Positions 3,330 to 60,942 are shown, counted from the first letter of the stretch. The stretch is 64,000 nucleotides of DNA from an uncultured Candidatus Saccharibacteria bacterium (GCA_964637185.1 CAZWVB010000002.1:1375-65374); one strand, 5' to 3'. The notes: generated by a model not told the origin, from the sequence alone. Program-made: numbers and translations.

Positions 3330-3404
3330 AATATTTTCCCTCTCATTGGATAATTGCTGGCGCCTGTCCGCCAAAAACGGACGAGGCTGCCACACATACT
3401 AGTA

Positions 3405-10616: not shown

Positions 10617-13600
10617 CTAGAAAGCTTGCCAATAAAAACTGGTAGTGGATGCCTGAACGGTGTTTAGCTCTATATCAAAACCTGTTGTAGTAACATTGGT
10701 TGCGCGATACTGACCGTTTACAAAATCTTTGGGGGTCAAACTAATATTTGGAGCCGCTGAAAAAGCAGTAGAAAACGAAACATGAGTACTAGTATTACCT
10801 GCTGACACAGCTGCATTCCCTACATTGTTACCACCGAGTTGCAACCTGCCATTGACATTGGTGGTGCCATCAAAGTTGGCGGTGCCAGTGAAGTGCACTA
10901 AGCCGTTGTATGTAGCTAAGGCGTTGTGGGTTTCGGATCCATTGATCGTACTTGTGCCATTGACAGTAAGGCCACCATTTAGCACTACGTCGTCGGTAAT
11001 TGTAATTAGGCCCGGAGTACTAAGGTCAATACGTGTCTGCAAGGCTGCCAGCTGAGCTTGTGCCTCCTTAAGGCCAGCAATCATGAAGGTATTGAGGTAG
11101 CCATAGTTAATTGTTTTAAGCCCAGTGATCGAATCGGTTTGGACAACCTCTGGCAAATATTGTTCTACTTGCTGAGCAGTAAAGCCATATTGAGTTGACG
11201 GCTCCGTCAGCGGGTCTGATCCTGCTGCCACCCAAGCCTCGTAATCACCCTTCCACTGATAAGTTATGGGCTGCAGGGCTCCAAGCTTCGCTAGAGTTCC
11301 TAACACATTCATATCAACAATGTTCGTCTTGAGTGATTCATCCGATGTACAACTCCAGCCAGTACCTGTTACTACTGTACACTGTGTGCCGGCCGAGCCA
11401 TTGAATCGAGTGACATTAGTAGTTGATGTGTCGGTTAGCTCAAGTTTGAAAGCAGGGGAGAGCGTATCAATGCCTACACTGCCGCCCATAATTGCCATGG
11501 TATTACTTTGGGATACTGTACCAACCCCTGCGTTCAAGCCTATTCCTACAGAATTGGAACCACTCACAATAATGTCCCGACCAAAAGCTGTACTTTCGTT
11601 CCCGCTGGCTTCGGTATTGTCGCCCCAAGCAGTTGCATAGTTATTTGAAGCAATTGTAGAAATGCCCCAAGCTGTCGAAGCATTACCAGACGCAGTGGTA
11701 TTAGTACCGAAAGCTGTTGAGTCTGTGCAGGTAGATTGGTTCCCCGCCCCCCATGATGTGGCCCCAAACCCAAATGGACAATTGAGACCACCATTGGTAA
11801 CATTACCCGAACCCCAAGCCGTGTCTAGTAGACCCGATACCTGATTTCCCTGACCAAAAGCGGTGCCAAATCCAGCACTAGCAACATTCGTGTCCCCCCA
11901 CACGGTTGAACGATCACCACTAGCCGTATTGCTACTGCCAAAAGCCAACGAACTATCGCCGCTAGCAGTAGTGTTTAGTCCAAAAGCAGTTGCTCGGCGG
12001 TTATTGGCAAGTGTTCCAGTACCAAAGGCAGTCGATGCACCATAATATGCTTGATTACCAAGGCCCCAAGCCGTCGCCCCCTCACCAAACAGCGCACTGC
12101 TATTTACAATATTGCCACTACCCCACGTGGTATCAGCACTATTTTGAGCTTGATTGTTTCGCCCCCAAACGGTAGAATCTCCCCCGCTAGCTATATTTAA
12201 GTATCCCCAAGTCGTTGCCCTACCAGCGCTCGCTGTAGTTTCCTGACCCCATGCTGTTGAGGTATCACCAGATGCCACTGTACCTAGACCAAAAGCTGTA
12301 GCACGACGGGCATGCGCATAGCTACCACTCCCCCAAGCAGTTGCCGAAGCGCCAAATGGTGTACCCGAGCTGTCGGCTATTGTTCCCACACCCCACGCGA
12401 AGTCATCAGCTGACAACGCTTGAGTGTTAGCGCCAAATGAAACAGCCGCATCTGCACTGGCTACAGTTTGACGACCAATTGCCAACGAATAAGAACCAGA
12501 AGCAGTAGTTTGATACCCAAACGCCGTTGCGCCAGCACCTGTGGCATTTGTATCATCTCCAAATGCAGTTGATCGTGATCCACTTGCGATTGTTGAGTTA
12601 CCAAAAGCCGTGGAGTCGGTACAAAGCGATTGATTACTACTACCCCATGCTGTGGCGCGTTCACCAAATGGACAGCCAGCTCCCGCATTTGTGAGGTTTC
12701 CAACTCCCCAAACAGTATCATTTATAGTGGTGGTGGTGTTCGCCTGTCCAAAAGCAGTCGAGATAGGGCCTGCTGAAGTATTTTGGTAACCCCAGGCTGT
12801 GGAGCGGTCACCACTGGCGGTGTTGGCATTCCCCCATGCTGTAGATTCAGAATTTGTGGCATTGTTATCAAACCCCCACGTAGTAGAACGCATCCCACTA
12901 GCATCAGACGATTCGCCCCATGCAGTACTTTCGTATCCTATTGCGTTACTTCCACCAAAACCAGTTGCGTAACTATTTTGAGCAGTGCCAGCTCCCCAAG
13001 CAGTAGCTGCCTCTGTACCTACAAATGCAATCGCGCCATTGCCCCAAGCAGTAGAGCGACTGCCATTGGCTTGGGTGTTTATACCCCACGCAGTCGATTG
13101 TCCACCATTGGCAATAGTGGTATTGCCCCAAGCTATGTTTTCATTGCCAGATATTGTGCCTGCCTTGGTGTTGTACCCCAGAGCAACTGAGCGAGTGCCG
13201 GCAGCTTGAGTCGCTTCGCCTCCTGCAAATGACTCGTAGCCACTTGCTGCACCAGCATTAAGAGAGAAAGCATATTGTCCGCTAGCAACAGAGGTGTTTG
13301 AGGCAAACGAAGCGTTACCACTAGCAACCGATCCATTACCGCTTGCGGTTGCATATATATTGGTAGCTTGGGTACTTTGACCCCAGGCAAAAGCATCTTG
13401 GGCGCTGGCCAAAGTACTTTGGCCCAAGGCCGTGGACCAGTTTGCACTAGCAGTATTGGTATTACCAAAGGCAATCGATCCTGTGCCACTAGCAGTAGAG
13501 TTATAGCCTGCAAATGAATGTGCCCCACTGGCTATTCCCGAACCGGTGGCCAAACTATAATCCCCACTTGCCGTACCGTTCGCTAACGCCGTAGCCGCCC

Positions 13601-16100
13601 GCCCGCTTGCAGCAGAACTCTCGCCAAACGCAGCTGAATAGAAATTGTTTGCTGTCGTATTTATGCCAAAAGCGACTGAGTTATTACCGCTGCTTTGGTT
13701 AGCTCGTGCGTTATTACCATAGGCAAATGAATAGGTATTGTAAGCTATCCCAGTACCACCAGCAAACGAAGCTGTTCCACTTGCAGCAGCACTATTTGTT
13801 GAAAAAGAACCGTCGCCACTAGCAACAGAGTTATTTGCTGCAAATGAATATTGACCACTCGCTACCGAGCCATTACCACTAGCGGTGGCATAGTTGTTTG
13901 TGGCCTGAGTGTTGACACCCCAGGCAAAAGCATCTTGGGCATTGGCCAATGTACTTTGGCCAAGTGCAGTAGACCATGTCCCACTAGCAGTAGTAGCATT
14001 TCCAAAGGCGATTGATCCGGTGCCACTGGCAGTGCCAGTATAGCCCGCAAAGCCATATGCGCCGCTGGCCAGCCCAGAACCAGTTGAGAGGCTATAATCT
14101 CCACTGGCTGTGCTGGCGCCTAGTGCTGTTGACCCTCGGCCAGATGCAGTAGAGCCTTCGCCAAACACTGCTGAATAAAAGTTGTTAGCTTGGGTATTGA
14201 TACCAAAAGCCACCGAATTATTACCCGATACATTGTTTGCACGAGCGTTCTGGCCAAAGGCAAACGAATAAGCATTGGCAGCTGTACCTGTTCCGCCGGC
14301 AAAAGAAGCGCCGCCGCTGGCGGTGCCCCCTGCAAAAGCCACCGCACTACCTCCATTAGCAACACCGCCAGCTACACTAAAATCATAGTTGGTATCAAAG
14401 TAGGCACGTTGGACACCATTGGTGCGAATTCTGAAATCTTGATTGTTATTAGTGCCAATATAGTCGCCTGCTCCTACTACATTCCCAGTCAGCAACCAGC
14501 CTGGAGTTGACACGGAAAAACATTGGAAATAACTTCCACCATTTTCAGAACATTGGAATGATCCAGCCCCCGAGTCGTAGTAAAAGCGACCTGTACCGGC
14601 GGGTGCCACAGCTATCCCCGTAGTACCATTTACAGTCACGGCACCAGCACCAACATTTAGAAGTGAGCTTGGCGTACTTGTCCCCACCCCGACTCGTTGA
14701 TTTAACGTATCTACATCAAGTACAACAGTAGTGTCATCTGCCTGACGAACTTGAAAAGCGTCAGTAACGTTACTATCCGGGCTTACATATATTGGCCGCT
14801 GGGTAGCACCGCCAACTACTCCAATCTGATACCCACCAGCTATACCAGCACCACTAAACTGAATTGCATACGGATCAATAATGCCGGTAACGTCTAAATC
14901 TCCATTGACACTGAGCGCCTTGCCGCCAACAGGTGCGCCGCCAATACCCACTTCACCGGCTGTATTGATAGTAAGTCGAGTGATCCCTCCTGTTTCGAGT
15001 TCTAAATTATTCCCATCGTTAGTACCAACTACCAAAGTTGCACCTGTGCTATTACCACCATCACATATTATTGTAAGTGATCCTGGACAAGCCGAGTCAA
15101 AATTAATTGCCAGGTTGCCAGCAGCAGTCAATCGGCCTTGGGCATCGACAGTAAATGTGGCCACTTGGGTTGAGGAACCATAACTACCTGCCGTAACAGC
15201 TGTATTATCCAAATTGAGAGTAATATTGTTGGTTGCAGATGCCGTCGAACTAAGACCAACACCACCTAGTACAGAAAGTGTATCACCTTGTGAAATTGTT
15301 TGGCTCGGTCCAATATCGGCTGCCGCGCTAAATAAATTACCTCCGGTTACTATACAGGTTGGACAGCTAAAATCAACCGTATTTATCCCTGTACTAGCCA
15401 CAATCGGGCCAGTACCGGTAAGAGTAACAGCTGGCCCGGTTTGGCCATTGATAGAGGTAATATTCCCACCTCCACCACCAGCAGCTACACATGAAAAACT
15501 ACTACCATTCCAAAATAATGCTTGGCCACCAACACAGGTTGGTGAATTTATGCTAATCGTACCGGTCGTAGTAATTGGTCCACCTTGTAGCCCGTTTCCA
15601 GTGTTAATTTGAGTAACTGATCCAGCTCCGGCAGGTCCCTGTGAACCTTGCGGACCCTGCGCGCCCGTTGTTCCTGGTGATCCGGCAGGCCCAGTCGGTC
15701 CCTGAGGGCCAGGTACGTTAGATGTATTGTTATTGGTGATTTGTTGATTAATTTCTTGGTTGGTAAGCTGAGTCTGGCTTATAAACTGTTGTAATTGGGG
15801 GCTCAGTTGCTCAACCGTAACACTCCCAACTGATAATTTAGCCCCACTGATGGTTCCATTTGGGATGTTATTAATAGTAGTAAACGTACTGGTCTGGCAA
15901 TTGTTCCTAATACCTAAAAAACGCATATACCAAACATCACTACATAAACCGCGCAACAATATAATCACTATTAATAGCAAGAATGCTAGACCTATCAAAA
16001 GCCAAATCAGCCAATGCGACTTTTTGGTGATCTCGTTATATTCAGATTGGTGATTTAAATTACTCGATTGTTGCACGGTCTTCCAAAGCTTATATACCAA
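10617..16100 (-). CDS. Giant (1827 aa) type-II membrane-anchored fibre protein. It carries a collagen-like triple-helix segment, phage-tail-fibre-like SxAxG repeats and a Peptidase S74-type intramolecular chaperone domain.
   Basis: N-terminal cytoplasmic stretch then one TM helix (HWLIWLLIGLAFLLLIVIILL). Gly-X-Y repeats (GPQGPTGPAGSPGTTGAQGPQGSQGPAG). Long arrays of the ~14-aa unit STAWG-N-ASG (as in phage tail fibre repeats). Near the C-terminus, CTSDESLKTNIVDMN…LQPITYQWK matches the S-x4-K…N-I auto-cleaving chaperone motif of endosialidase-type tail spikes. About 130 further residues share a C-terminal module with the next gene. Confidence 0.8.
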   Translation of the reverse strand: MVYKLWKTVQQSSNLNHQSEYNEITKKSHWLIWLLIGLAFLLLIVIILLRGLCSDVWYMRFLGIRNNCQTSTFTTINNIPNGTISGAKLSVGSVTVEQLSPQLQQFISQTQLTNQEINQQITNNNTSNVPGPQGPTGPAGSPGTTGAQGPQGSQGPAGAGSVTQINTGNGLQGGPITTTGTISINSPTCVGGQALFWNGSSFSCVAAGGGGGNITSINGQTGPAVTLTGTGPIVASTGINTVDFSCPTCIVTGGNLFSAAADIGPSQTISQGDTLSVLGGVGLSSTASATNNITLNLDNTAVTAGSYGSSTQVATFTVDAQGRLTAAGNLAINFDSACPGSLTIICDGGNSTGATLVVGTNDGNNLELETGGITRLTINTAGEVGIGGAPVGGKALSVNGDLDVTGIIDPYAIQFSGAGIAGGYQIGVVGGATQRPIYVSPDSNVTDAFQVRQADDTTVVLDVDTLNQRVGVGTSTPSSLLNVGAGAVTVNGTTGIAVAPAGTGRFYYDSGAGSFQCSENGGSYFQCFSVSTPGWLLTGNVVGAGDYIGTNNNQDFRIRTNGVQRAYFDTNYDFSVAGGVANGGSAVAFAGGTASGGASFAGGTGTAANAYSFAFGQNARANNVSGNNSVAFGINTQANNFYSAVFGEGSTASGRGSTALGASTASGDYSLSTGSGLASGAYGFAGYTGTASGTGSIAFGNATTASGTWSTALGQSTLANAQDAFAWGVNTQATNNYATASGNGSVASGQYSFAANNSVASGDGSFSTNSAAASGTASFAGGTGIAYNTYSFAYGNNARANQSSGNNSVAFGINTTANNFYSAAFGESSAASGRAATALANGTASGDYSLATGSGIASGAHSFAGYNSTASGTGSIAFGNTNTASANWSTALGQSTLASAQDAFAWGQSTQATNIYATASGNGSVASGNASFASNTSVASGQYAFSLNAGAASGYESFAGGEATQAAGTRSVALGYNTKAGTISGNENIAWGNTTIANGGQSTAWGINTQANGSRSTAWGNGAIAFVGTEAATAWGAGTAQNSYATGFGGSNAIGYESTAWGESSDASGMRSTTWGFDNNATNSESTAWGNANTASGDRSTAWGYQNTSAGPISTAFGQANTTTTINDTVWGVGNLTNAGAGCPFGERATAWGSSNQSLCTDSTAFGNSTIASGSRSTAFGDDTNATGAGATAFGYQTTASGSYSLAIGRQTVASADAAVSFGANTQALSADDFAWGVGTIADSSGTPFGASATAWGSGSYAHARRATAFGLGTVASGDTSTAWGQETTASAGRATTWGYLNIASGGDSTVWGRNNQAQNSADTTWGSGNIVNSSALFGEGATAWGLGNQAYYGASTAFGTGTLANNRRATAFGLNTTASGDSSLAFGSSNTASGDRSTVWGDTNVASAGFGTAFGQGNQVSGLLDTAWGSGNVTNGGLNCPFGFGATSWGAGNQSTCTDSTAFGTNTTASGNASTAWGISTIASNNYATAWGDNTEASGNESTAFGRDIIVSGSNSVGIGLNAGVGTVSQSNTMAIMGGSVGIDTLSPAFKLELTDTSTTNVTRFNGSAGTQCTVVTGTGWSCTSDESLKTNIVDMNVLGTLAKLGALQPITYQWKGDYEAWVAAGSDPLTEPSTQYGFTAQQVEQYLPEVVQTDSITGLKTINYGYLNTFMIAGLKEAQAQLAALQTRIDLSTPGLITITDDVVLNGGLTVNGTSTINGSETHNALATYNGLVHFTGTANFDGTTNVNGRLQLGGNNVGNAAVSAGNTSTHVSFSTAFSAAPNISLTPKDFVNGQYRATNVTTTGFDIELNTVQASTTSFYWQAF

Positions 16101-16128: not shown

Positions 16129-18474
16129 CTATTCTTGTGCTTGCCAATCAAACTTGGTGTCAGTAGTCTGAGCTGATTCCAACTCAATAGTAAATCCGCT
16201 GGCCGATTTGGACTTCAGCCAATAGCGTCCGCCGGTATCACTACTCGGGCTAACAACGATATTTGGCGTCTTCGAATACGATGTCGAGAAACTATATCCA
16301 CCGGACTTCTGGCCAGCTGGAATAACAACTGTACCGCGGGTGTTGGCGTTCCCACTCACTATGCCTTTTATTATTATATTGCCACCTATGGTAACATCGC
16401 CGCCAAACTCGACAGCTTTGCTATCGGCGAGTTGTTTGAGCGCATCCATGCTAGTACCAGTAGCTGAGTTTTTTAGTGTGTCTATTTGTTTTTGTTGCTC
16501 TTGAACTGCAGAGACCAGATAGGGGATGAGGCCATCTTTGCTCAGAGTTTTGGTGCCATCGGGCAGTTGCGATACTAGACCTGGCAATACTTTTTCAACT
16601 TCTTGTGCGATGAATCCTGCTACTGCTTGGCCATCCGGTGAAGTTTTCCAGTTGTATGTAACACCTCGAAGCTCCATGATCTTGTCCAGCCCTCCATTGA
16701 TACTTAAGATGTTTTGCTTAAGTTTTTCATCCGATACACAACTAAGCGATCCGAGCCCAGTGTCTACCGTACACGTACCTGAAGTACCAGTAAAATTGGC
16801 TGGTGTATCGTCTGAAGTGTCGACTACACTAAGCCTGTTTGTAGGACTGCCAGCGCCAATGTTGAAATTCCCATCCTTATCAACACGGCTGACTACAGTA
16901 CCAGCCAATCCGCCACCAGTTTGCCATTGAGTAAGATCACCTGTTTGGCCAGTGATGCCCTGTACCACAAGAGGTTTATCAGTAGTTGCTGCGGAGTGTA
17001 CAATCAGTGATGCATTTGAATCATCAACAAAACTGGTTTTTGGGTTGATAGTCAATTTGGTACCCCCTGGTGGCGCGGCTAGACAGAAAAATGTGCCCAG
17101 TACCGAGCTGGGAGTAAGATTGTTTGCACAAGCACCAATCGAGACTTTACCTTCAAAATAATTGTTACTGTTGTAGCCTTCAGATACGAGATTGGCGCTG
17201 CCGACTGATCCACTTTGCTGATACTGGATATCAATACCCACTTGGTGGCTAATGGTGTTTGGCTCATAAAGTGTTGGGAAGCCAAGAAAGGCAAGTGAAG
17301 GGTCCTGGGGATCAACTATGGTATTGCCTGAGTAATAATCTATTACGCCATTGAGTGATCCGCCGTTGTAGGTAATAGGAATAGTCGCGCTGCCAAATGC
17401 GTAGGCTATATCACCAGAGCCAAAATTGGATACTGTATTGAGTTGGGCTGCTTGCATAAATACCGTACCGCTACCAGCATGTGTTACCGCGTTCATTACT
17501 CCGCCATTGAGATAGAAGTCTTTCGAGTTGTCCTTGTCAGTCTGCAGGGCCGAATACCCACCAGCATAAATGTTTTTATTACCACCGGCAACGGTTCTAA
17601 AACCAAGAATGCTCCCTAATATGACTGGAGCATATTGCGGATTGGCCAGCAATTCGTTGGCAGTGCCAACAAAAATGCTTCCTGGATTTGGATTGTTTGT
17701 TGAAATCTGTTGTACGGATAGAATACGTTGGATATCGTCATTGGAGAATAATGGACCCGTATCTAGAATGGACGTATTTGGAGTAGACTGCGCCCCCACC
17801 AACAAATAATTGTCTACCTTTGCTGCACCATTGACCTCGAGACTAAGTGCTGATATCGAAGGCACACTAGTGTTGACCCCCACAAAATTGGTAGCGGTAC
17901 TAACACTCAATACTGGCGCGGCCGAAGCATTCTGCACAGAAAAGGCCGATACTGAGTTGCTACTGTTGCGAAATATCTGATTGGTACCAGTGAAGGCCTG
18001 GAAGTTCTTATTGGTATAGGCGATAAATGGATCGAGCTGGCTTGGCTGCAACACACCACTAATATTGTTAGCTTGGAGGTTGGTAATGCCGCTTCCATTA
18101 CCCTGCAGATTGGCTGCCGTAATCGTACCTGTGGCGGTGATATCGCCGTTTACAGCCAGCACACCCTGTTGTGCTTGAGCCAGGGGCTGATTACCTAGAT
18201 TGAAGCTTACCGGCTTGTAGCGCTCAGCGGGGTTGGCAAACTGGCTTACCTGGCTACGATTGCGCCATATCAAAATTACTGCTGTAGTAAATAGCAGCAG
18301 CAATGCAATAGCCGCAGCTATCCAAAGTGCTTGATAGAATCGATTACGCCGATGCAACTTGGCGATCTCGGCATTTTCAGCCGAAACTGCCGCGTCAGTC
18401 GATTGACCTTGCAGCTGTCCAGAAAAAGTCGCTTGTTCCAACGAAACATTTGGTGTGTTTGTTTCTCCGTCCAC
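16129..18474 (-). CDS. Second (781 aa) type-II membrane-anchored fibre-like protein with a Peptidase S74-type intramolecular chaperone domain.
   Basis: GTG start. TM helix (ALWIAAAIALLLLFTTAVILIW). Motif CVSDEKLKQNILSINGGLDKIMELRGVTYNWK. Its C-terminal ~90 aa (…TPNIVVSP…GFTIELESAQTTDTKFDWQAQE) are shared with the 1827-aa protein (…APNISLTP…GFDIELNTVQASTTSFYWQAF). Only 28 nt separate it from the downstream gene. Confidence 0.75.
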   Translation of the reverse strand: MDGETNTPNVSLEQATFSGQLQGQSTDAAVSAENAEIAKLHRRNRFYQALWIAAAIALLLLFTTAVILIWRNRSQVSQFANPAERYKPVSFNLGNQPLAQAQQGVLAVNGDITATGTITAANLQGNGSGITNLQANNISGVLQPSQLDPFIAYTNKNFQAFTGTNQIFRNSSNSVSAFSVQNASAAPVLSVSTATNFVGVNTSVPSISALSLEVNGAAKVDNYLLVGAQSTPNTSILDTGPLFSNDDIQRILSVQQISTNNPNPGSIFVGTANELLANPQYAPVILGSILGFRTVAGGNKNIYAGGYSALQTDKDNSKDFYLNGGVMNAVTHAGSGTVFMQAAQLNTVSNFGSGDIAYAFGSATIPITYNGGSLNGVIDYYSGNTIVDPQDPSLAFLGFPTLYEPNTISHQVGIDIQYQQSGSVGSANLVSEGYNSNNYFEGKVSIGACANNLTPSSVLGTFFCLAAPPGGTKLTINPKTSFVDDSNASLIVHSAATTDKPLVVQGITGQTGDLTQWQTGGGLAGTVVSRVDKDGNFNIGAGSPTNRLSVVDTSDDTPANFTGTSGTCTVDTGLGSLSCVSDEKLKQNILSINGGLDKIMELRGVTYNWKTSPDGQAVAGFIAQEVEKVLPGLVSQLPDGTKTLSKDGLIPYLVSAVQEQQKQIDTLKNSATGTSMDALKQLADSKAVEFGGDVTIGGNIIIKGIVSGNANTRGTVVIPAGQKSGGYSFSTSYSKTPNIVVSPSSDTGGRYWLKSKSASGFTIELESAQTTDTKFDWQAQE

Positions 18475-44810: not shown

Positions 44811-45809
44811 ATGAATATGCACGACACGATTGCACGGCTTTTTGTCGAGCCCAAAGGCATATTGGCAGCCGATGAGAGCAGCAAGACCGCGACCAAACGA
44901 TTTGAAGCTGTCGGGATTGACTCCACGACAGAAAATCGCCGCCTATACCGCCAAATGCTTTTTGAAACACCGGAGTTCGCACAATATATTAGTGGGGTCA
45001 TACTATATGATGAGACGTTTTGGCAATCCAACGATTCTGGCGTGAGCTTTGTTGACTACCTATCCAAGCTCGGTATCATACCTGGAATAAAGGTGGATTG
45101 TGGCCTAGTACCTCTCACCAACTTCGAGCCTGAGACAATTACCGAAGGCTTAGATGGTCTCGACGCACGGCTACACAAGTACGCCCAAGCTGGAGCCAGA
45201 TTTACCAAATGGCGAGCAGCATTCCAAATCGATCAAGACAAATCCTTACCGACTATGGCGGCAATTCATGCCAACCTCAATCTCATGGCACGCTATGCTG
45301 CTTTGGTGCAGAGCCATCAGATGGTCCCGATTGTCGAACCAGAAGTACTATATGATGGCGAGCACACGATTGAGCTGTCTGCTGAGGTTACCAGCAATGT
45401 ACTGCGCGTGCTATATGACTTACTTACTGCTTACCGAGTTGATCTCTCCTGTACGATCCTAAAGACCAGCATGGTGTTGGCTGGCAACAAATCAGCTAAA
45501 CCGTCTAGCCCGGATCAGGTGGCTAACCATACACTGGAAGTATTACGGGAGCGTGTGCCATCTGAAGTTGGCGGAATCGTCTTTCTCAGCGGGGGCCAAA
45601 CTCCTGAGCAAGCCAGCGCCAATCTCAACGCCATCGATAGTCAAGGCACGCAGCCATGGCCAATCACGTTTTCGTTTTCACGTGCCGTACAAGACCCAGC
45701 CATCAAAGTCTGGGCCGGCCAGTCCGCCAATGTTGCGGCCGCCCAAAAAGAGTTTGCTGTGTGGCTCGCCAAAAATGCTTTGGCGCGACGTGGCAAATTG
45801 AGCGAATAA
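44811..45809 (+). CDS. fba: Fructose-bisphosphate aldolase, class I
   Basis: 332 aa. N-terminal GILAADESSKTATKRF (the class I FBA signature I.AADES.GT..KR) and a Schiff-base lysine region. Confidence 0.85.
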   Translation: MNMHDTIARLFVEPKGILAADESSKTATKRFEAVGIDSTTENRRLYRQMLFETPEFAQYISGVILYDETFWQSNDSGVSFVDYLSKLGIIPGIKVDCGLVPLTNFEPETITEGLDGLDARLHKYAQAGARFTKWRAAFQIDQDKSLPTMAAIHANLNLMARYAALVQSHQMVPIVEPEVLYDGEHTIELSAEVTSNVLRVLYDLLTAYRVDLSCTILKTSMVLAGNKSAKPSSPDQVANHTLEVLRERVPSEVGGIVFLSGGQTPEQASANLNAIDSQGTQPWPITFSFSRAVQDPAIKVWAGQSANVAAAQKEFAVWLAKNALARRGKLSE

Positions 45810-45848
45810 AATTTTGACAAAAAAGTTCAAAAATATAGCAAAAAGTTG

Positions 45849-45878
45849 TTGACACACCTGCAGCTTAAGCGGTATTAT
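45849..45878 (+). promoter_or_regulatory. Sigma70-like promoter: TTGACA-18-TATTAT, with an extended TGTTGACA.
   Basis: Near-consensus hexamers seen directly in the sequence, 40 nt after the fba stop. A hairpin terminator lies about 60 nt downstream. Confidence 0.45.
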
Positions 45879-45936
45879 TACTTTAGTGCTGCTGCACACA
45901 TAAATTACTCAAAAACAAAAACAAAGCTCTTCCAAC

Positions 45937-45976
45937 AGATCAGCCAAGGCCACAAGCCGAGGCTGATCTTCTTTTT
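45937..45976 (+). terminator. Rho-independent terminator: 9-bp stem AGATCAGCC/GGCTGATCT followed by a T-tract.
   Basis: Inverted repeat AGATCAGCC…GGCTGATCT followed by TCTTTTT on the plus strand, downstream of fba. Confidence 0.55.
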
Positions 45977-46003
45977 AGCATTACGATTTCTGCCATAATT
46001 TTT

Positions 46004-46747
46004 GTGTGCGCCAATGCTCGTTTGTATTTCAAACTTTTTTTAAGCAAAATAATATTCATGCAAATTTCACTCGTCATCCCCGCCCACAACGAAGCCGAAT
46101 ATATAGGCCGATGTTTGGCCGCGGCGTCAGCCCAATCGCAGCCGTTTGCCGAAATAATTTTGGTCGACAACAATTGCGCTGACAAGACTATTGAAATCGC
46201 CCGCCACATGCAACTCAAAAATTTGCACGTAGTTCGTGAAAACAAACAAGGCATCGGCCATGCCCGCAGCGCAGGATTTGACGCGGCTCGTAGCGACATT
46301 ATTGCCCGCATAGATGCCGATACTATCCTACCAACAGATTGGAATAAGCAAATATTAGCTGATTTTGACCAAGAAAAGCCCGATGCTATCACCGGCCCAG
46401 CCTACTTTTATGATTTCCCGCGTATTGTGCGACCTGCTATCACCTGGTTGCACATACGTCTCTACTTCCACCGCACCGCCCAAATGATGGGCAGCCCGAC
46501 CCTGTGGGGCTCAAACATGGCAATTACCAAGGCTATGTGGCAGCGAGTTAAGCCCAAAATTACTGATGACGACTCGCTGGTGCACGAGGATGTCGATCTT
46601 GCTCTCCAAATTCACCGTGCTGGCGGCAACATATACTTCGACCCGAAGCTCCTAGTGGGTGTCAAAATGCGTCAGCTCTACAGATCACCACGCAATACTA
46701 TCGCTTACTTCCGCCGGCGCCGCACTACCATTGAGCGCAGCAAGTAA
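46004..46747 (+). CDS. Glycosyltransferase family 2
   Basis: 247 aa. ISLVIPAHNEAEYIGRCL, VDNNCADKT, ARIDADTIL (the DxD-type region). GC is elevated relative to the upstream housekeeping genes. Confidence 0.7.
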   Translation: MCANARLYFKLFLSKIIFMQISLVIPAHNEAEYIGRCLAAASAQSQPFAEIILVDNNCADKTIEIARHMQLKNLHVVRENKQGIGHARSAGFDAARSDIIARIDADTILPTDWNKQILADFDQEKPDAITGPAYFYDFPRIVRPAITWLHIRLYFHRTAQMMGSPTLWGSNMAITKAMWQRVKPKITDDDSLVHEDVDLALQIHRAGGNIYFDPKLLVGVKMRQLYRSPRNTIAYFRRRRTTIERSK

Positions 46748-46843
46748 CTGCTTACGCTGTACCAGCCCTGGCTTATCTGTTAGACTAGCGCAAGCGAAAT
46801 CGTTCGCCAAACCCGCAAGTTCACAACCGAAAGAGAGATCATC

Positions 46844-47341
46844 ATGATCCATGTGTTTTTGGGAAGCAAGAGCGATCTGGAGCTGGTCAAGGCCAGCGTC
46901 CGCCCGATCTTCAACCAGCTGTGCCAGGACCTGGACATCGGCCCTGGCTACATCCGATACCACATCTGTTCGGCTCACCGCAATTCAGATGAGCTGGCAG
47001 CCTTCGTGAAGAGGATCGTCGACGAAGTCGATCCCCAGATCGCCATCGGTGTGGCCGGCATGGCAGCTGCTCTGCCCGGTGCGCTGGCCGGTGCCAGCAA
47101 GATGCAAATCCCGGTGATCGGTGTGCCGCTCGACGAGGACGGCATCGACAGCTGCGCCTACATGCCACCCGGGGTACCGGTGATGTTGGCAGGAGTCGGC
47201 AAGCCGGGTCTCAAGAACGCCACGCTCGCCGCCATCCAGATCGAAGCGATGCGCAGCGCGCCAATTGCCGCATGGCTTCGTGACTACATGAGCGCCAACA
47301 CCCCGTCAGCCAAGTTCGACATCGACATCAACGCCGACTGA
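46844..47341 (+). CDS. purE: N5-carboxyaminoimidazole ribonucleotide mutase (PurE)
   Basis: 165 aa. GSKSDLELV, SAHRNSDELAAFVK, IAIGVAGMAAALPGALAG, PVIGVPL are PurE signatures. About 65% GC, far above the window background. Confidence 0.85.
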   Translation: MIHVFLGSKSDLELVKASVRPIFNQLCQDLDIGPGYIRYHICSAHRNSDELAAFVKRIVDEVDPQIAIGVAGMAAALPGALAGASKMQIPVIGVPLDEDGIDSCAYMPPGVPVMLAGVGKPGLKNATLAAIQIEAMRSAPIAAWLRDYMSANTPSAKFDIDINAD

Positions 47342-47366
47342 GTCGGCTCACAACAGGAGAAACACC

Positions 47367-48266
47367 GTGACACTCACACCCATCTACACCGGTAAGGTCT
47401 GCGACATCTACGACGCAGGCGGCGGACGTCAACTGCACGTCCGCACCGACCGCACCAGCGTGTTCGACGTGGTGCTACCCCAACAGGTGCAGGACCGTGG
47501 CAAGGTGCTCACCGAGATCAGCAACTTCTGGCTCGATCTGTACCCGGACGTGCCTCGGGCACACTTGCCCTACGGTCGGCCGGAGAAGTTCAGTTCGATC
47601 CCCGACCTGGCCTACCGCTCCACCTTGATGCGCGTGGCGGAGATGCTCAAGATCGAGTGCATCGTACGTGGCTACCTGACCGGCTCCGGTCTCAAGGAGT
47701 ACAAGCGCGATGGCGGTCAGCTGTGCGGCATCCAGTTGCCAGATGGGCTGGTCGAGGCCAGCCAGCTGCCCGAGCCAATCTTCACCCCCAGCACCAAGGC
47801 TGAGAGCGGCCACGATGAGAACATCAGCTTCAAGGCCGCCGTGGACATCATCGAGGCGCAGTTCCCTGGCCGCGGCATGGAGCTGGTCACGCGCGCCAAG
47901 CTGATCTCGCTCGATCTGTACCGCCGGGCCGCGGCCCATGCCCGAGAGCGCGGCATCATCATCGCCGACACCAAGTTCGAGTTCGGGCTGATCGATGGCG
48001 AGCTGGTGCTGTGTGACGAGGTGCTCACACCTGACAGCAGCCGGTTCTGGCCGGCGGAGCTGTGGGTACCCGGCCAGAGCACGCCCAGCTTCGACAAGCA
48101 GATCCTGCGCGATGTCTACCAGGCTCTCTACGACGAGGGCAAGTGGGATAAGAAGTACCCGGCGCCCGAGGTCGATCAGAAGCACTTCGAGCTCACCCGT
48201 GAGCGCTACATCGAGGGCTTCGTGAGGCTGACCGGCTCCAAGCCGGAGTTCCTCAAGGCAGCCTGA
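47367..48266 (+). CDS. purC: Phosphoribosylaminoimidazole-succinocarboxamide synthase (SAICAR synthetase, PurC)
   Basis: 299 aa. GKVCDIYDAGG…LHVRTDRTSVFDVVLP matches the PurC signature (GKVRDIY…TDRISAFD). Same high GC as purE. Confidence 0.85.
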   Translation: MTLTPIYTGKVCDIYDAGGGRQLHVRTDRTSVFDVVLPQQVQDRGKVLTEISNFWLDLYPDVPRAHLPYGRPEKFSSIPDLAYRSTLMRVAEMLKIECIVRGYLTGSGLKEYKRDGGQLCGIQLPDGLVEASQLPEPIFTPSTKAESGHDENISFKAAVDIIEAQFPGRGMELVTRAKLISLDLYRRAAAHARERGIIIADTKFEFGLIDGELVLCDEVLTPDSSRFWPAELWVPGQSTPSFDKQILRDVYQALYDEGKWDKKYPAPEVDQKHFELTRERYIEGFVRLTGSKPEFLKAA

Positions 48267-48446
48267 TCTCTGACCAACCTGCGGGTAGGCCGAGCGTCTG
48301 GGATAGCATCCCGGAGGCTCGGCCACCAGCCTGAGTATTCAAATCCGCTGTCCAGCGAATTGAATCTTCAGGTTGAAATAACTATGTTGTAAATACGACG
48401 TCAGCCCCCAGCGGGAGGCGGACGCCTGCTTGCTAGGGGCTGTTGA

Positions 48447-48812
48447 TCAGGAAGTGATGACTGCGTCTCTCCACAGAGATGCGATCGCTCGTTCACCTTC
48501 CTCCCGCGACACGATCGTAGGTGTGGCGTAGTGCAGGTCGCCGACGAACGACGTTCTCCAGGTACCCGAGGTGATCCTCGCTTTGTCCTGCTTTCCACAG
48601 AAGGTGCACAGGCGATAGCGGTTGCGACCACTGTTACCCACCCATTCCAGTACTTCAGCGTGTGGGCAGGTAGCCCGCAGCTGATTGATCAGATCAGGAA
48701 GCTTCCGGGCGGCCTCCTGCGCTTGACGGATCTGCAACCGCAGCAGGTTGAGTTTGTCCTGCAAGGTCACCTCGCCACCCAACTCCCGTGGGCCAGCGTC
48801 ATCATCGATCAT
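48447..48812 (-). CDS. Small C4 zinc-ribbon protein, unknown function (high-GC island).
   Basis: 121 aa. AGGAGAAG RBS. Cysteine pairs CPHAEVLEW…RLCTFCGK. GC is like purE/purC. Confidence 0.4.
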   Translation of the reverse strand: MIDDDAGPRELGGEVTLQDKLNLLRLQIRQAQEAARKLPDLINQLRATCPHAEVLEWVGNSGRNRYRLCTFCGKQDKARITSGTWRTSFVGDLHYATPTIVSREEGERAIASLWRDAVITS

Positions 48813-48895
48813 GGTCTTCTCCTATTCGATCGAGGTTGCTACCTGGTGTAGCGAACTGCAAGTATGCTAGCATTTAGCAATAATAAATTCAACGA

Positions 48896-49711
48896 CTACT
48901 CGTGATAGTCGCGAAAAAGGGGTTTTACCTTGGCAATATCTGTCAGCAGATCTTTGTTGCTGTATTTGCGGCGCTCTATCTGTTGCCAGCCTGGTCCGTC
49001 ATTGCTAGGATCGGCCGGACTGACCGAATGCAGCCAGTTGAGATGGCTATCGAGCTGGCCACTCTCAGGATCTCGTCGGCTGTAGTGCAACACTTGGCAG
49101 TTAAATATCTTTACGCCTGGCTCCTTGGAAGACTCTAGCTCCATCCATCGGTTGATGGACAACCTCTCCAGCAGGAAGCGAAATCCCCACATCACCTCAC
49201 CATGACAGACTATTATTACATTTTTGTCACTGCATTCGCGGTGCAGCGTATCGAGTACGTTGCGCAGACGCAAGGTCATATGGGCGATTGATTCTCCATT
49301 GGGCGGTACCCAGTAGAACGAATCGGTATCACGATGCTTCATAAGCTGCTCGGACTTGGCTTGGCGCTCCTCCCAGCTCATGTTGTCCAGATCGCCCCAC
49401 TCGCGCTCGCGCAGCATGGGCTCCACAAACCAATCTGGGCCATGTAGATCCAACAACGCTGCCGTCTCTTTGGCTCGTATGTAATCTGATACGATGCGTC
49501 GATCAAACATAGCCATATCGTTAGCCTTGAGCCACTTGCCGGCAGCCTTGGCTTGCCCCTGGCCTTTGTGCGTGAGACGATGTCTGGAACTATGTCTGTC
49601 TTGGAACTCTTTGGTATAAAAACTCGGATCGCCTTCTTTCGACTTGTGAGAGGCTAAGTTCTGCTCACTCTGGCCGTGGCGCACCAGTACTAGATTGATC
49701 GGCATGGTCAT
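48896..49711 (-). CDS. Histidine phosphatase superfamily (phosphoglycerate-mutase-like) protein
   Basis: 271 aa. N-terminal LVRHGQSEQN (the RHG catalytic motif) and a downstream His (IVCHGEVMWGF). Confidence 0.65.
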   Translation of the reverse strand: MTMPINLVLVRHGQSEQNLASHKSKEGDPSFYTKEFQDRHSSRHRLTHKGQGQAKAAGKWLKANDMAMFDRRIVSDYIRAKETAALLDLHGPDWFVEPMLREREWGDLDNMSWEERQAKSEQLMKHRDTDSFYWVPPNGESIAHMTLRLRNVLDTLHRECSDKNVIIVCHGEVMWGFRFLLERLSINRWMELESSKEPGVKIFNCQVLHYSRRDPESGQLDSHLNWLHSVSPADPSNDGPGWQQIERRKYSNKDLLTDIAKVKPLFRDYHE

Positions 49712-49845
49712 AACAATATTGTAGTTGACTGCTTAACAGATAGATAGTCAAGATATTTTACCCAATAACGAAAAAGACCCACGGAATACGAAACCGTGTG
49801 GTCTTTTCCGTGGGTCGATTGTCTGCTGCCAGCCCAGCTCGCTAC

Positions 49846-50406
49846 TTAGGCGCTCATTAGTGGCTCGATCAGGGCAATCAGCTCATGAGTGGCCTGCTCC
49901 AGGTCATTGTTGACAATCACCCTTGGCCAAATGGTAGTGAGGGCTGCGATCTCAGATGGTGCTGCCGCAAGTCGCTTCAGGGCTGCGGCCTTGTCTTCAC
50001 TACCTCGTCCTAGAAGCCGTTGCTCGACTACAGCCAACTGCTCCTCCAGATTGTTACCTGGCGGCAAGATCCCAACCAAGTAGGCATCTGGCTTCGCCGC
50101 CAACACCTGTTGTGCACCCTGGACCTCTATCTCAAGCAGGGTATGTCCTTCTTCGCGGTACCAAGAGCCGTAGAGGTTGCCGCCAAACTCTGCCCACTCG
50201 AGAAATTCGCCTCTCTCAACTGCCTGCATGAACTCATCGCGAGAGACATACTGGTAACGCTTGATACCATCGTCGTCGCCCACACGCCATTCCCGGGTAG
50301 TCCAGGAGAGACCGACTTGAAGCTCGGGAAATCGATCAAGAACTCTGCGAAGCAAGGTACCCTTACCCACACCAGATGGGCCCGACACTACTATCAGTAT
50401 GCTCAT
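49846..50406 (-). CDS. gmk: Guanylate kinase
   Basis: 186 aa. P-loop VVSGPSGVGKGTLLRRV and SWTTREWRVGDDDGIKRYQYVSRDEF (the GMP-binding motif S.TTR…E.DG.DY.FVS). GC about 55%. Confidence 0.85.
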   Translation of the reverse strand: MSILIVVSGPSGVGKGTLLRRVLDRFPELQVGLSWTTREWRVGDDDGIKRYQYVSRDEFMQAVERGEFLEWAEFGGNLYGSWYREEGHTLLEIEVQGAQQVLAAKPDAYLVGILPPGNNLEEQLAVVEQRLLGRGSEDKAAALKRLAAAPSEIAALTTIWPRVIVNNDLEQATHELIALIEPLMSA

Positions 50407-50476
50407 GATGCCGCCTTTGGTAGTGGTCTAGTTGAACTGGTGTACTTTACCACTCCTGTAGCCATCTAGCAAGTAT

Positions 50477-50500
50477 CAAAAAAGACCCATTGCTGGGTCG
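50477..50500 (-). terminator. Rho-independent terminator immediately after the tmRNA CCA end.
   Basis: On the minus strand: …CCACCAAAAGC-GACCCA-GCAA-UGGGUC-UUUUUUGA. Confidence 0.6.
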
Positions 50501-50504
50501 CTTT

Positions 50505-50885
50505 TGGTGGAGCTGGAGGGAATCGCACCCTCGTCCACATGGCTAAGTCAGTACCGTCTACAAGCGTAGTCGCATCTAATTGGTTTGAGAAGCTAGTGGT
50601 ATCGAGAGATCCGACAAAAACAACCGCTCGCTTCCCCTATCTTTGGTCTTAGCTTGGTCATGAAGGGGCTAACCAAGAGCAATCAGATAAATGACGCGTC
50701 ATACCCCATCTGATGTCAGGTAGTCAGCGGCTTACGACAATTAAGCGTAGGCTGGTGCAAGACTAGAGTTAACTAGGTTGCGCATAAGTGATTTGGCACT
50801 TATAGATTGGTGAGCCAGCTAACGTGTAGCTCAACCCGGCTTGCTAGTACTGTCAAAGATCCACATGTCGAAGCTAATCAGCCCC
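50505..50885 (-). ncRNA. ssrA: Transfer-messenger RNA (tmRNA, SsrA), 381 nt with encoded CCA.
   Basis: Minus-strand 5' end GGGGCUGAUUAGCUUCGACAUGUGG (compare E. coli GGGGCUGAUUCUGGAUUCGACGGG). Minus-strand 3' end GGACGAGGGUGCGAUUCCCUCCAGCUCCACCA (T-arm + acceptor + CCA). The 5' GGGGCUG pairs with the 3' CAGCUCC. Candidate tag frame after an A/U-rich tract: GCC AAA UCA … GCC UAC GCU UAA (…LAPAYA*). A flanking promoter and terminator are also present. Confidence 0.85.
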
Positions 50886-60600: not shown

Positions 60601-60942
60601 ATGCGCGTCAAAAGAGGCGTTACTGCCCGCAATCGCCACAAAAAAATATTGAAGATGGCCAAAGGCTACAGCAAGGCCCGCCGCTCTAGCTACCGCAAGG
60701 CCAACGAAGCTGTCATCAAGGCCCTATCCTACCAGTACCGCGATCGCCGCAACCGCAAGCGCGACTTCCGCAGTCTTTGGATCACTCGTATCTCTGCCGC
60801 TGCCAAAGCCAATGGTACCAGCTACTCTGTACTCATGGATAAGCTCAATAAGGCCAAAGTGGGCCTAAACCGCAAGATGCTTAGCGAAGTAGCCGCCCGC
60901 TACCCCGAAGCTTTCTCCGAAATCGTCAAGTCCGCCAAATAA
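60601..60942 (+). CDS. rplT: 50S ribosomal protein L20
   Basis: 113 aa. MRVKRGVTARNRHKKILKMAKGY…RDRRNRKRDFRSLWITRI…. Confidence 0.9.
   Translation: MRVKRGVTARNRHKKILKMAKGYSKARRSSYRKANEAVIKALSYQYRDRRNRKRDFRSLWITRISAAAKANGTSYSVLMDKLNKAKVGLNRKMLSEVAARYPEAFSEIVKSAK

Follow-up and report, generated by a model that had tools for sequence, protein, structure and literature searches.

Genomic islands at the 3′ end of ssrA, the gene for transfer-messenger RNA (tmRNA), are carried by tyrosine-integrase elements. Saccharibacteria have acquired metabolic modules horizontally, for example the arginine deiminase system in mammal-associated lineages, and the amelioration of horizontally acquired genes has been described in the model of Lawrence and Ochman. 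The subject of the present analysis is a purE-purC gene pair that lies close to ssrA in an uncultured Candidatus Saccharibacteria bacterium (GCA_964637185.1 CAZWVB010000002.1:1375-65374; this whole stretch of 64,000 nucleotides is referred to as the window). Like the arginine deiminase module, the cassette appears to be a small foreign metabolic set that is present in some lineages only of these reduced-genome epibionts. Unlike that module, it comprises a two-step fragment of purine synthesis and has seemingly been replaced repeatedly.

The locus is probably a foreign but non-recent purE-purC cassette, shared between lineages, that is ameliorating, under selection and recombining in a variable interval adjacent to ssrA. 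The high-GC core, consisting of purE, purC, the hairpins 3′ of purC and probably a small orphan gene (the ORFan), would be derived from foreign high-GC DNA. It lies in the interval from ssrA to the genes for fructose-bisphosphate aldolase (FBA), SmpB and ArgRS of a Saccharimonadia (Patescibacteria) genome. The pair would have entered these lineages, or been exchanged among them, after their divergence, giving a cassette common to at least one sister lineage at exactly matching junctions and a related pair in the interval of a third. It would now be drifting toward the AT-richer composition of its host while being kept by purifying selection. Homologous recombination would reshuffle it between strains and lineages and, in some strains, swap the purE allele for an unrelated class-I purE. 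The event is of an ordinary kind, horizontal acquisition; what is unusual is the modular allele swapping, a host-independent GC content at third codon positions (GC3) and an uncharacterised PurE subfamily.

In a sliding analysis, GC content is 0.60–0.65 across 46.8–48.8 kb, with 0.466 for the whole window, and every 1-kb bin outside this segment is at or below 0.525. The GC3 of each gene was expressed as a z-score relative to the 44 window genes outside the block (mean GC3 0.449, standard deviation 0.057). The initial annotation had described purE, purC and the adjacent small open reading frame (ORF), here the ORFan, as GC-rich relative to their surroundings, and this was confirmed (GC 0.59–0.64, GC3 z of 4–7). 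It had also described the flanking genes for a family-2 glycosyltransferase (GT2), a histidine-phosphatase superfamily protein (HisPhos) and guanylate kinase (gmk) as intermediate in GC. They are raised, but weakly so: GC3 is 0.55 for GT2 (z 1.8), 0.61 for HisPhos (z 2.9) and 0.58 for gmk (z 2.2). The relative synonymous codon usage of purE and purC correlates at 0.14 with native genes and at 0.82 with a high-GC Acidimicrobiales pur operon, and the tetranucleotide correlation to the whole window is 0.09 for 47–49 kb, the median being 0.78. Sliding GC, tetranucleotide and codon-usage analyses all show the 46.8–48.8 kb core to be deviant. As intergenic DNA is also GC-raised within the block (0.51–0.57, compared with 0.36–0.47 outside), the signal is not one of codon bias alone. 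The core genes purE, purC and the ORFan are compositionally foreign. Among all native genes the top GC3, 0.675, belongs to rplT (window 60601–60942, + strand); this hints at a preference of highly expressed genes for G/C-ending codons and is a caution for the use of GC3 as a sign of foreignness.

The ArgRS adjoining the block matches Saccharibacteria and Patescibacteria proteins. By ArgRS, the nearest named genome (54% identity) is GCA_020852295.1 (JADZBC01), placed in the Saccharimonadia order CAILAD01 (PMC12592800). The flanks, two family-4 glycosyltransferase genes with ssrA (GT4-GT4/ssrA) and FBA-SmpB-ArgRS, are conserved across lineages. The interval downstream of the ssrA 3′ end, from the FBA stop at 45809 to 50505 and so near the limits first proposed for the block, is variable in the clade. 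The window and locus L003 (L numbers designate the loci and contigs compared) share the order GT2-purE-purC-hyp-HisPhos-gmk, where hyp is the ORFan. A distinct lineage with an ArgRS 66% identical to that of the window (L004, L006 and L091–L093) has GT2-purE-purC-HisPhos and then ssrA, without the ORFan and without gmk. In a third lineage (L090), ssrA is followed by five small genes (G5 and four small ORFs), an inverted purE-purC and then FBA-SmpB-ArgRS. The distribution is patchy, these three lineages carrying the pair and L007 (ArgRS 54%) having no purEC near SmpB-ArgRS. A pattern scan of the GTDB species representatives with PurC gave no close relative among the matches listed, which were of mixed phyla and 54% identical at best.

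That the block is a chimeric assembly, or high-GC contaminant DNA joined to a Saccharibacteria contig, had been raised as an alternative at the outset. It would account for the abrupt change in composition, and one short contig (L001) does look like a join of two lineages. However, identical junctions on both sides occur in at least six independent assemblies from differing samples and pipelines and from two diverged lineages: L003 (ENA), L004, L006, L092 and L093 (four Logan runs) and L091 (JGI, a 231-kb contig). The block structure is further supported by the near-identical short contigs L001 and L002. DNA homology between the lineages also spans the left junction, the window and L004 being alignable across GT2 and the intergenic DNA as far as the purE ATG, and again from the purC ATG. 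The chimera explanation is refuted for practical purposes, with a negligible probability remaining to it. It had been anticipated that relatives with the same genes at the same GC would point to native, vertically inherited genes. Relatives do carry them at like GC, but the pair is equally anomalous against their own backgrounds (GC3 0.72–0.86 vs 0.40–0.51 in three lineages). This argues for an older, shared, recombining foreign cassette and not for native genes.

Native genes of the window and L091 are saturated, with an identity at 4-fold degenerate sites of 0.29–0.36, where the random expectation is approximately 0.27. For purE and purC, synonymous divergence (dS) is approximately 0.84 and 4-fold identity 0.53, well below the saturated background, so that the cassette postdates the split of its hosts. 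Either it has moved between hosts or it entered both from closely related sources. GT2 is 66% identical at the amino acid level with a dS of approximately 1.1 in the same saturated background. The initial reading as a recent, private transfer does not hold, since the cassette lies at the same place in lineages as distant as the ArgRS identity of 66% indicates, and a related pair lies in the third.

Polarised third-position changes in purC comprise 42 from GC to AT and 6 from AT to GC. In a simulation that included the parsimony bias, approximately 32:13 was expected at compositional equilibrium (P of a ratio of at least 7 approximately 0.01) and approximately 56:12 under decay from a very GC-rich ancestor. 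The excess over the equilibrium expectation therefore favours amelioration. The cassette resembles the amelioration model in that its GC3 lies far above that of the host, with GC-to-AT changes prevailing approximately 7:1 over the reverse, and in that the observed GC3 of 0.75–0.86 is close to a decay from approximately 0.9–0.95 over a dS/2 of approximately 0.4. It differs from simple amelioration in that lineages saturated elsewhere share the cassette, which must also have moved between them, and in that this GC-rich state is seen again in many further lineages of Saccharimonadia. The ratio of nonsynonymous to synonymous divergence (dN/dS) is 0.12–0.27 for purE and 0.19–0.25 for purC, and both genes are therefore under selection.

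Comparison of the window with L003 revealed a mosaic tract that begins within purE and ends within HisPhos, in which there are 23–90 mismatches per 400 nucleotides (nt), compared with 0–6 outside. Nucleotide divergence in the tract reaches 4% in purE, 9.7% in purC, 30% in the ORFan (63% amino acid identity) and 9% in HisPhos, whereas the flanks are approximately 99.5% identical. The corresponding dS values are 0.10 for purE, 0.29 for purC, 1.04 for the ORFan and 0.50 for HisPhos, with 0.008–0.024 in the flanks. Between L091 and L004, dS is 0.38 for purC and 0.72 for HisPhos, with 0.02–0.11 in the flanks. In the same lineage, L004 and L006 have a class-I purE where L091–L093 have the window-type purE, the two being 37% identical. 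As a separate observation, the HisPhos dS of 0.5–0.7 between near-identical strains is accompanied by a dN/dS of 0.04–0.07; strains apparently exchange divergent HisPhos alleles under tight conservation of the protein.

In contig L001, positions 1–230 are 100% identical to the L091 lineage (purE 3′ end) and positions 231–1559 are 100% identical to the window, through purC. This contig was considered as proof of recombination between lineages and was downgraded, as it is 1.5 kb long with a single switch point and may be an assembly chimera. Whichever origin it has, run SRR23702482 contains both lineages.

The 3′ end of ssrA (50505) faces the block, and the gmk start codon is 98 nt off. The block had been said to end within 60 nt of the ssrA 3′ end, which is correct for the end coordinate given (50450, 55 nt away), with no visible integrase or repeat of the tmRNA end. 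Domain and repeat searches bear this out. No recombinase domain was found in the six genes of the interval (GT2, PurE, PurC, ORFan, His_Phos_1 and Gmk) or in the syntenic loci. A 20-mer from the tmRNA 3′ end, with up to 3 mismatches allowed, was found in ssrA itself only. Between the final 45 nt of ssrA and the interval, the longest common k-mer measures 8–10 nt in the window, L091 and L090, which equals shuffled controls, so that the search for a degraded attL/attR copy of the tmRNA 3′ end gave nothing above chance. Directly against ssrA lies gmk, whose codon usage is near-native; the GC-rich core is 1.7 kb off, behind the conserved HisPhos.

No integrase-mediated mechanism is evident. The locus shares with ssrA islands its site downstream of the ssrA 3′ end, its foreign composition and a content that varies between related genomes. 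It is unlike them in having neither an integrase nor a direct repeat of the ssrA 3′ end, and in its size and content, with an interval of just 4.7 kb and housekeeping-type genes. The element nearest ssrA in the window is a single gmk with its own terminator, and turnover of the interval is apparently by homologous recombination.

It had been postulated that the block is an integrative island at the tmRNA attachment site, brought in by a recent host-to-symbiont transfer from an actinobacterial partner. The position beside ssrA and the lineage-dependent content of the interval are in keeping with this, as is the likeness in codon usage to a high-GC actinobacterial operon. The closest named homologues of PurC are also found in Acidimicrobiales (Actinomycetota), at 57–58% identity. 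Against it stand the lack of an integrase and, in the window, L091 and L090, of any repeat of the ssrA 3′ end, the conserved HisPhos between purE-purC and ssrA, and the sharing of the cassette by lineages with saturated synonymous divergence. Furthermore, PurC is at most 58% identical to that of any actinobacterium, while the best identity outside the clade is 61% and that in other phyla 54%. In the Acidimicrobiales locus L005, purC has purB and not purE as its neighbour, and the PurE of the window differs from the class-I type usual in actinobacteria. This explanation is largely refuted on recency and mechanism, and is very unlikely overall. It was also considered whether the 5′ part of a pur operon had been captured from an actinobacterium; this was rejected on the grounds that purB, not purE, precedes purC in L005.

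In neighbour-joining (NJ) bootstrap trees, the PurC sequences of the window clade form a monophyletic group (200/200) whose sister is P0006 (192/200). Their grouping with the Acidimicrobiales-type set is weak (144 of 200 replicates); with other Saccharibacteria PurC they group in 10 of 200 only. An actinobacterial host as the donor is unproven, with PurC identities of 57–61% at best, a bootstrap of 72% and a PurE that belongs to a Saccharimonadia/Patescibacteria subfamily. With 208 bits to PF01259 and 327.3 bits to NF010568 (residues 3–292, exceeding the cutoff of 251), the purC product is a bona fide PurC, the synthetase for phosphoribosylaminoimidazole-succinocarboxamide (SAICAR).

PurE matches PF00731 at 92 bits and is below the cutoff of TIGR01162 (85.1 bits vs 149.6), whereas the L004 allele is above it with 172.3 bits. 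Homologues at 45–57% identity are named Saccharimonadia, Saccharibacteria or Patescibacteria, with one Dormibacteraeota member, and the PurE of the window, L091 and L090 are monophyletic (95/100). The subfamily is of the same fold family (AIRC) as the class I PurE, an N5-CAIR mutase, of E. coli (1QCZ/1D7A) and M. jannaschii (2YWX). For class I structures its profile scores are 113–117 bits, and for those of class II, the AIR carboxylases (T. denticola 3RG8, human PAICS 2H31), 55 bits. It keeps the GSKSD phosphate loop and SAHRN with the catalytic His, invariant, and the motifs CSAHRN, AGMAAALPG and YMPPGVPV are invariant as well. Unlike class I PurE, it has a shortened loop before the QMP motif and an extra C-terminal segment. 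In the 70s loop (AGMAAALPG; AGGAAHLPG in class I), an Ala that is invariant in 24 subfamily members takes the place of His75 of E. coli PurE, and every matched class I chain with a displayed alignment has the 70s-loop His. None of the solved structures belongs to the AGMAAALPG subfamily. The subfamily, which lacks the class-I 70s-loop His, is uncharacterised. No purK was found in the 64-kb window or in any of the loci compared. In the genomes of the named members, purE and purC are adjacent as well, and the pair often lies within a real pur cluster, accompanied by purH, B, N, L, Q and M in L088, L094 and L097 and by purB in L095.

A single PurE subfamily occurs beside three or four unrelated types of PurC, and two types of PurE occur with a single PurC clade. 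In the pair of P0006 (L176), with AT-rich flanks, PurE is of class I and 67% identical to the L004 allele. As the pairings are mixed across loci, the pair is modular. At 16 loci with an adjacent pair, the GC3 of the pair is approximately 0.74 across backgrounds of 0.40–0.77 (slope 0.01, r 0.01), while 43 PurE homologues without an adjacent purC track their own genomes (slope 1.08, r 0.98). Even within pur clusters of native GC (L094, L095 and L097), the GC3 of the pair is 0.64–0.87 and that of neighbouring pur genes 0.43–0.54. Between L094 and L097 the flanking pur genes are saturated; dS is 0.45 for purE and 0.92 for purC.

A 534-amino acid (aa) ORF beside the pair in L120 (5409–7013, − strand), a candidate that is probably purH by size and position, has a GC3 of 0.81, with neighbours at 0.36–0.62. 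The GC-rich segment can therefore reach beyond purE-purC in some lineages. A further observation concerns an element of approximately 130 nt upstream of purE in L094 (~1870–2000), L095 (~7850–7980) and L097 (~2560–2690), which is 90–95% identical among the three despite synonymously saturated neighbouring genes. With plausible stems and no match in Rfam, it is a candidate leader or riboswitch-like element; the window purE has no such element upstream.

The host-independent GC3 could be explained if the genes were long resident in Saccharimonadia, with the high GC3 and low dS upheld in place by synonymous selection or by GC-biased gene conversion at a recombination hotspot, and not due to foreign origin. 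The constancy of the pair at 16 loci, with unpaired PurE following the genome, would agree with this, as would its GC-rich state within native-GC clusters, the recombinogenic nature of the locus and the monophyly of the PurE of the three lineages. Several results point the other way. The excess of GC-to-AT changes is 7:1, compared with approximately 2.5:1 at equilibrium. The association of the PurE subfamily with three or four unrelated PurC types, and of the L004/L006/L176 PurC with class-I PurE, represents real replacements. The neighbouring GC-rich ORFans differ (hyp in the window, h2–h4 in L090), HisPhos recombines equally and yet has a GC3 of just 0.54–0.61, and the intergenic DNA of the block is GC-raised too. 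Long residence with upheld composition is therefore unlikely, though less so than a recent island.

Host-independent GC3 is best fitted by repeated replacement from a high-GC reservoir. It has been considered, as a tentative possibility that is less likely than not, that purE-purC is a roaming two-gene module of Saccharimonadia with approximately 0.74 GC3 that repeatedly replaces or supplements resident genes, even in purine clusters of native GC and here at a hotspot adjacent to ssrA, with unrelated alleles being swapped. If so, either a high-GC reservoir lineage re-seeds the pair or an unrecognised force upholds the GC of two genes. There could also be a tie to the PurE subfamily with the His75-to-Ala change, which perhaps carboxylates 5-aminoimidazole ribonucleotide without PurK.

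Several points weigh against the interpretation as an ameliorating foreign cassette, which nonetheless remains the favoured one. Selection on synonymous sites or GC-biased gene conversion would likewise give a low dS and a steady high GC3. PurC identity outside the clade is 61% at best, the trees are NJ only and taxon sampling is biased to top matches. The PurE subfamily is typical of Saccharimonadia with real pur clusters (L088, L094, L095), and part of the pair could be an old component of the lineage and not an import from outside the class. The mosaic patterns are drawn from metagenome assemblies, with a coverage of approximately 1.2x for L003 and a possibly chimeric L001, and evidence on the remaining purine pathway is limited to the 64-kb window.

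From their family assignments, PurE and PurC would convert 5-aminoimidazole ribonucleotide (AIR) to its carboxylated form (CAIR) and then to SAICAR. This two-step unit is the one that animals fuse as PAICS, and the adjacency of purE and purC mirrors that PurC-PurE fusion (PMC10484210). The initial annotation had noted no other pur genes nearby, and indeed no other de novo purine gene (purF, D, N, L, M, K, B or H) is present anywhere in the 64-kb window. The flux would presumably be completed by purB and purH encoded elsewhere, or be fed by host intermediates. Saccharimonadia are generally reported to be without de novo nucleotide synthesis (PMC12592800), and nothing specific on purE or purC in Saccharibacteria was found in the literature. 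A selected purE-purC pair in such a genome may point to salvage of a host-derived imidazole intermediate, to a retained lower purine pathway or to a function not yet considered. In an epibiotic group that recombines naturally, the locus offers a clear and datable case of foreign DNA that would have been retained while ameliorating and spreading from one lineage to another. Should whole genomes confirm that the GC3 of the pair is independent of the host, this would be unusual as a pattern of evolution.

The features of the interval are collected in Table 1.

Table 1. Features of the ssrA-adjacent interval (positions counted from the first nucleotide of the window).
Feature	Position	Strand	Evidence or properties
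Variable interval between FBA-SmpB-ArgRS block and ssrA 3′ end	45810–50504	.	Comparative synteny
Promoter-like site TTGACA-18-TATTAT, upstream of GT2	45849–45878	+	11/12 consensus matches; consensus match only
GT2, family-2 glycosyltransferase, left flank	46004–46747	+	PF00535 at 9.5e-27
purE	46844–47341	+	GC 0.614, GC3 0.79, z on GC3 5.9
Mosaic tract, window vs L003	46970–49370	.	2.4 kb, 4–30% divergent; elsewhere 0–0.6%
purC	47367–48266	+	GC 0.637, GC3 0.86, z on GC3 7.2
Two tandem hairpins directly 3′ of purC	48288–48375	+	−58.5 kcal/mol, z = −7.8
ORFan (hyp), 121 aa	48447–48812	-	C-x-H...C-x-x-C motif; GC 0.590, GC3 0.68, z on GC3 4.0
HisPhos, histidine-phosphatase superfamily	48896–49711	-	PF00300 at 1.9e-29
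Single-gene insertion with gmk and own terminator	49780–50502	-	723 nt
gmk, guanylate kinase	49846–50406	-	PF00625
ssrA terminator hairpin	50484–50499	-	Terminator scan
tmRNA (ssrA)	50505–50885	-	ARAGORN; Rfam RF00023 at 115.5 bits

The predicted promoter may drive GT2-purE-purC as a single unit. Between the window and the L091/L004 lineages, the hairpins 3′ of purC are 85–88% identical, with one compensatory pair, and the purC DNA is 76% identical. They have no T-run and are probably a terminator between convergent genes, or may act as a stabiliser. In an Rfam search of the block at E ≤ 1, no RNA family other than tmRNA was found.

The ORFan had been labelled a zinc-ribbon gene; the motif behind that label is present, but no Pfam or NCBIfam family is matched. 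It has 4 matches among 1.84 billion representative proteins, and a scan of viral contigs with it gave no match. It is missing from the L004/L006/L091 lineage, window segment 48409–48914 being absent from L004. Residues 50–77 (H-x-E-x-x-EW...Y-x-x-C-x-x-CG) match a unit that is repeated approximately 11 times in a 1372-aa dockerin-containing protein (P0368).

HisPhos is 84–88% identical in amino acid sequence to that of the L091 lineage and adjoins ssrA directly in relatives without gmk. In L004, the junction alignment shows 18 nt (3352–3369) in place of the gmk insertion; on one side the insertion adjoins the ssrA 3′ end, and on the other the sequence found downstream of the ssrA terminator in relatives. 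A 23-nt terminator-like repeat flanks gmk (49759–49781 and 50467–50489) and was the sole repeat in a general search. The gmk gene is a separate single-gene insertion at the ssrA terminator, and L004, L006 and L091 must encode gmk at another site.

Two candidate features of purC were set aside. An antisense ORF of 283 aa (47475–48326, − strand) spans nearly all of the gene and is read as a by-product of its high GC3. A purC pseudogene in L092 was rejected; purC is intact there, and the gene caller had annotated the antisense ORF (L092 7601–8566).

Beyond the interval, the FBA gene beside SmpB (window 44811–45809, + strand) is of class I (PF00274) in the window, L006, L090 and L091. At the same position in L007 (8534–9382), a class II aldolase (PF01116) is encoded, which suggests non-orthologous replacement of FBA in the window clade. 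Elsewhere in the window, an 1827-aa protein (10617–16100, − strand) carries YadA-head repeats, a Peptidase_S74 intramolecular-chaperone domain and an H-type lectin domain, and a 781-aa protein (16129–18474, − strand) carries a Peptidase_S74 domain. Both look like fibre or adhesin-type surface proteins.

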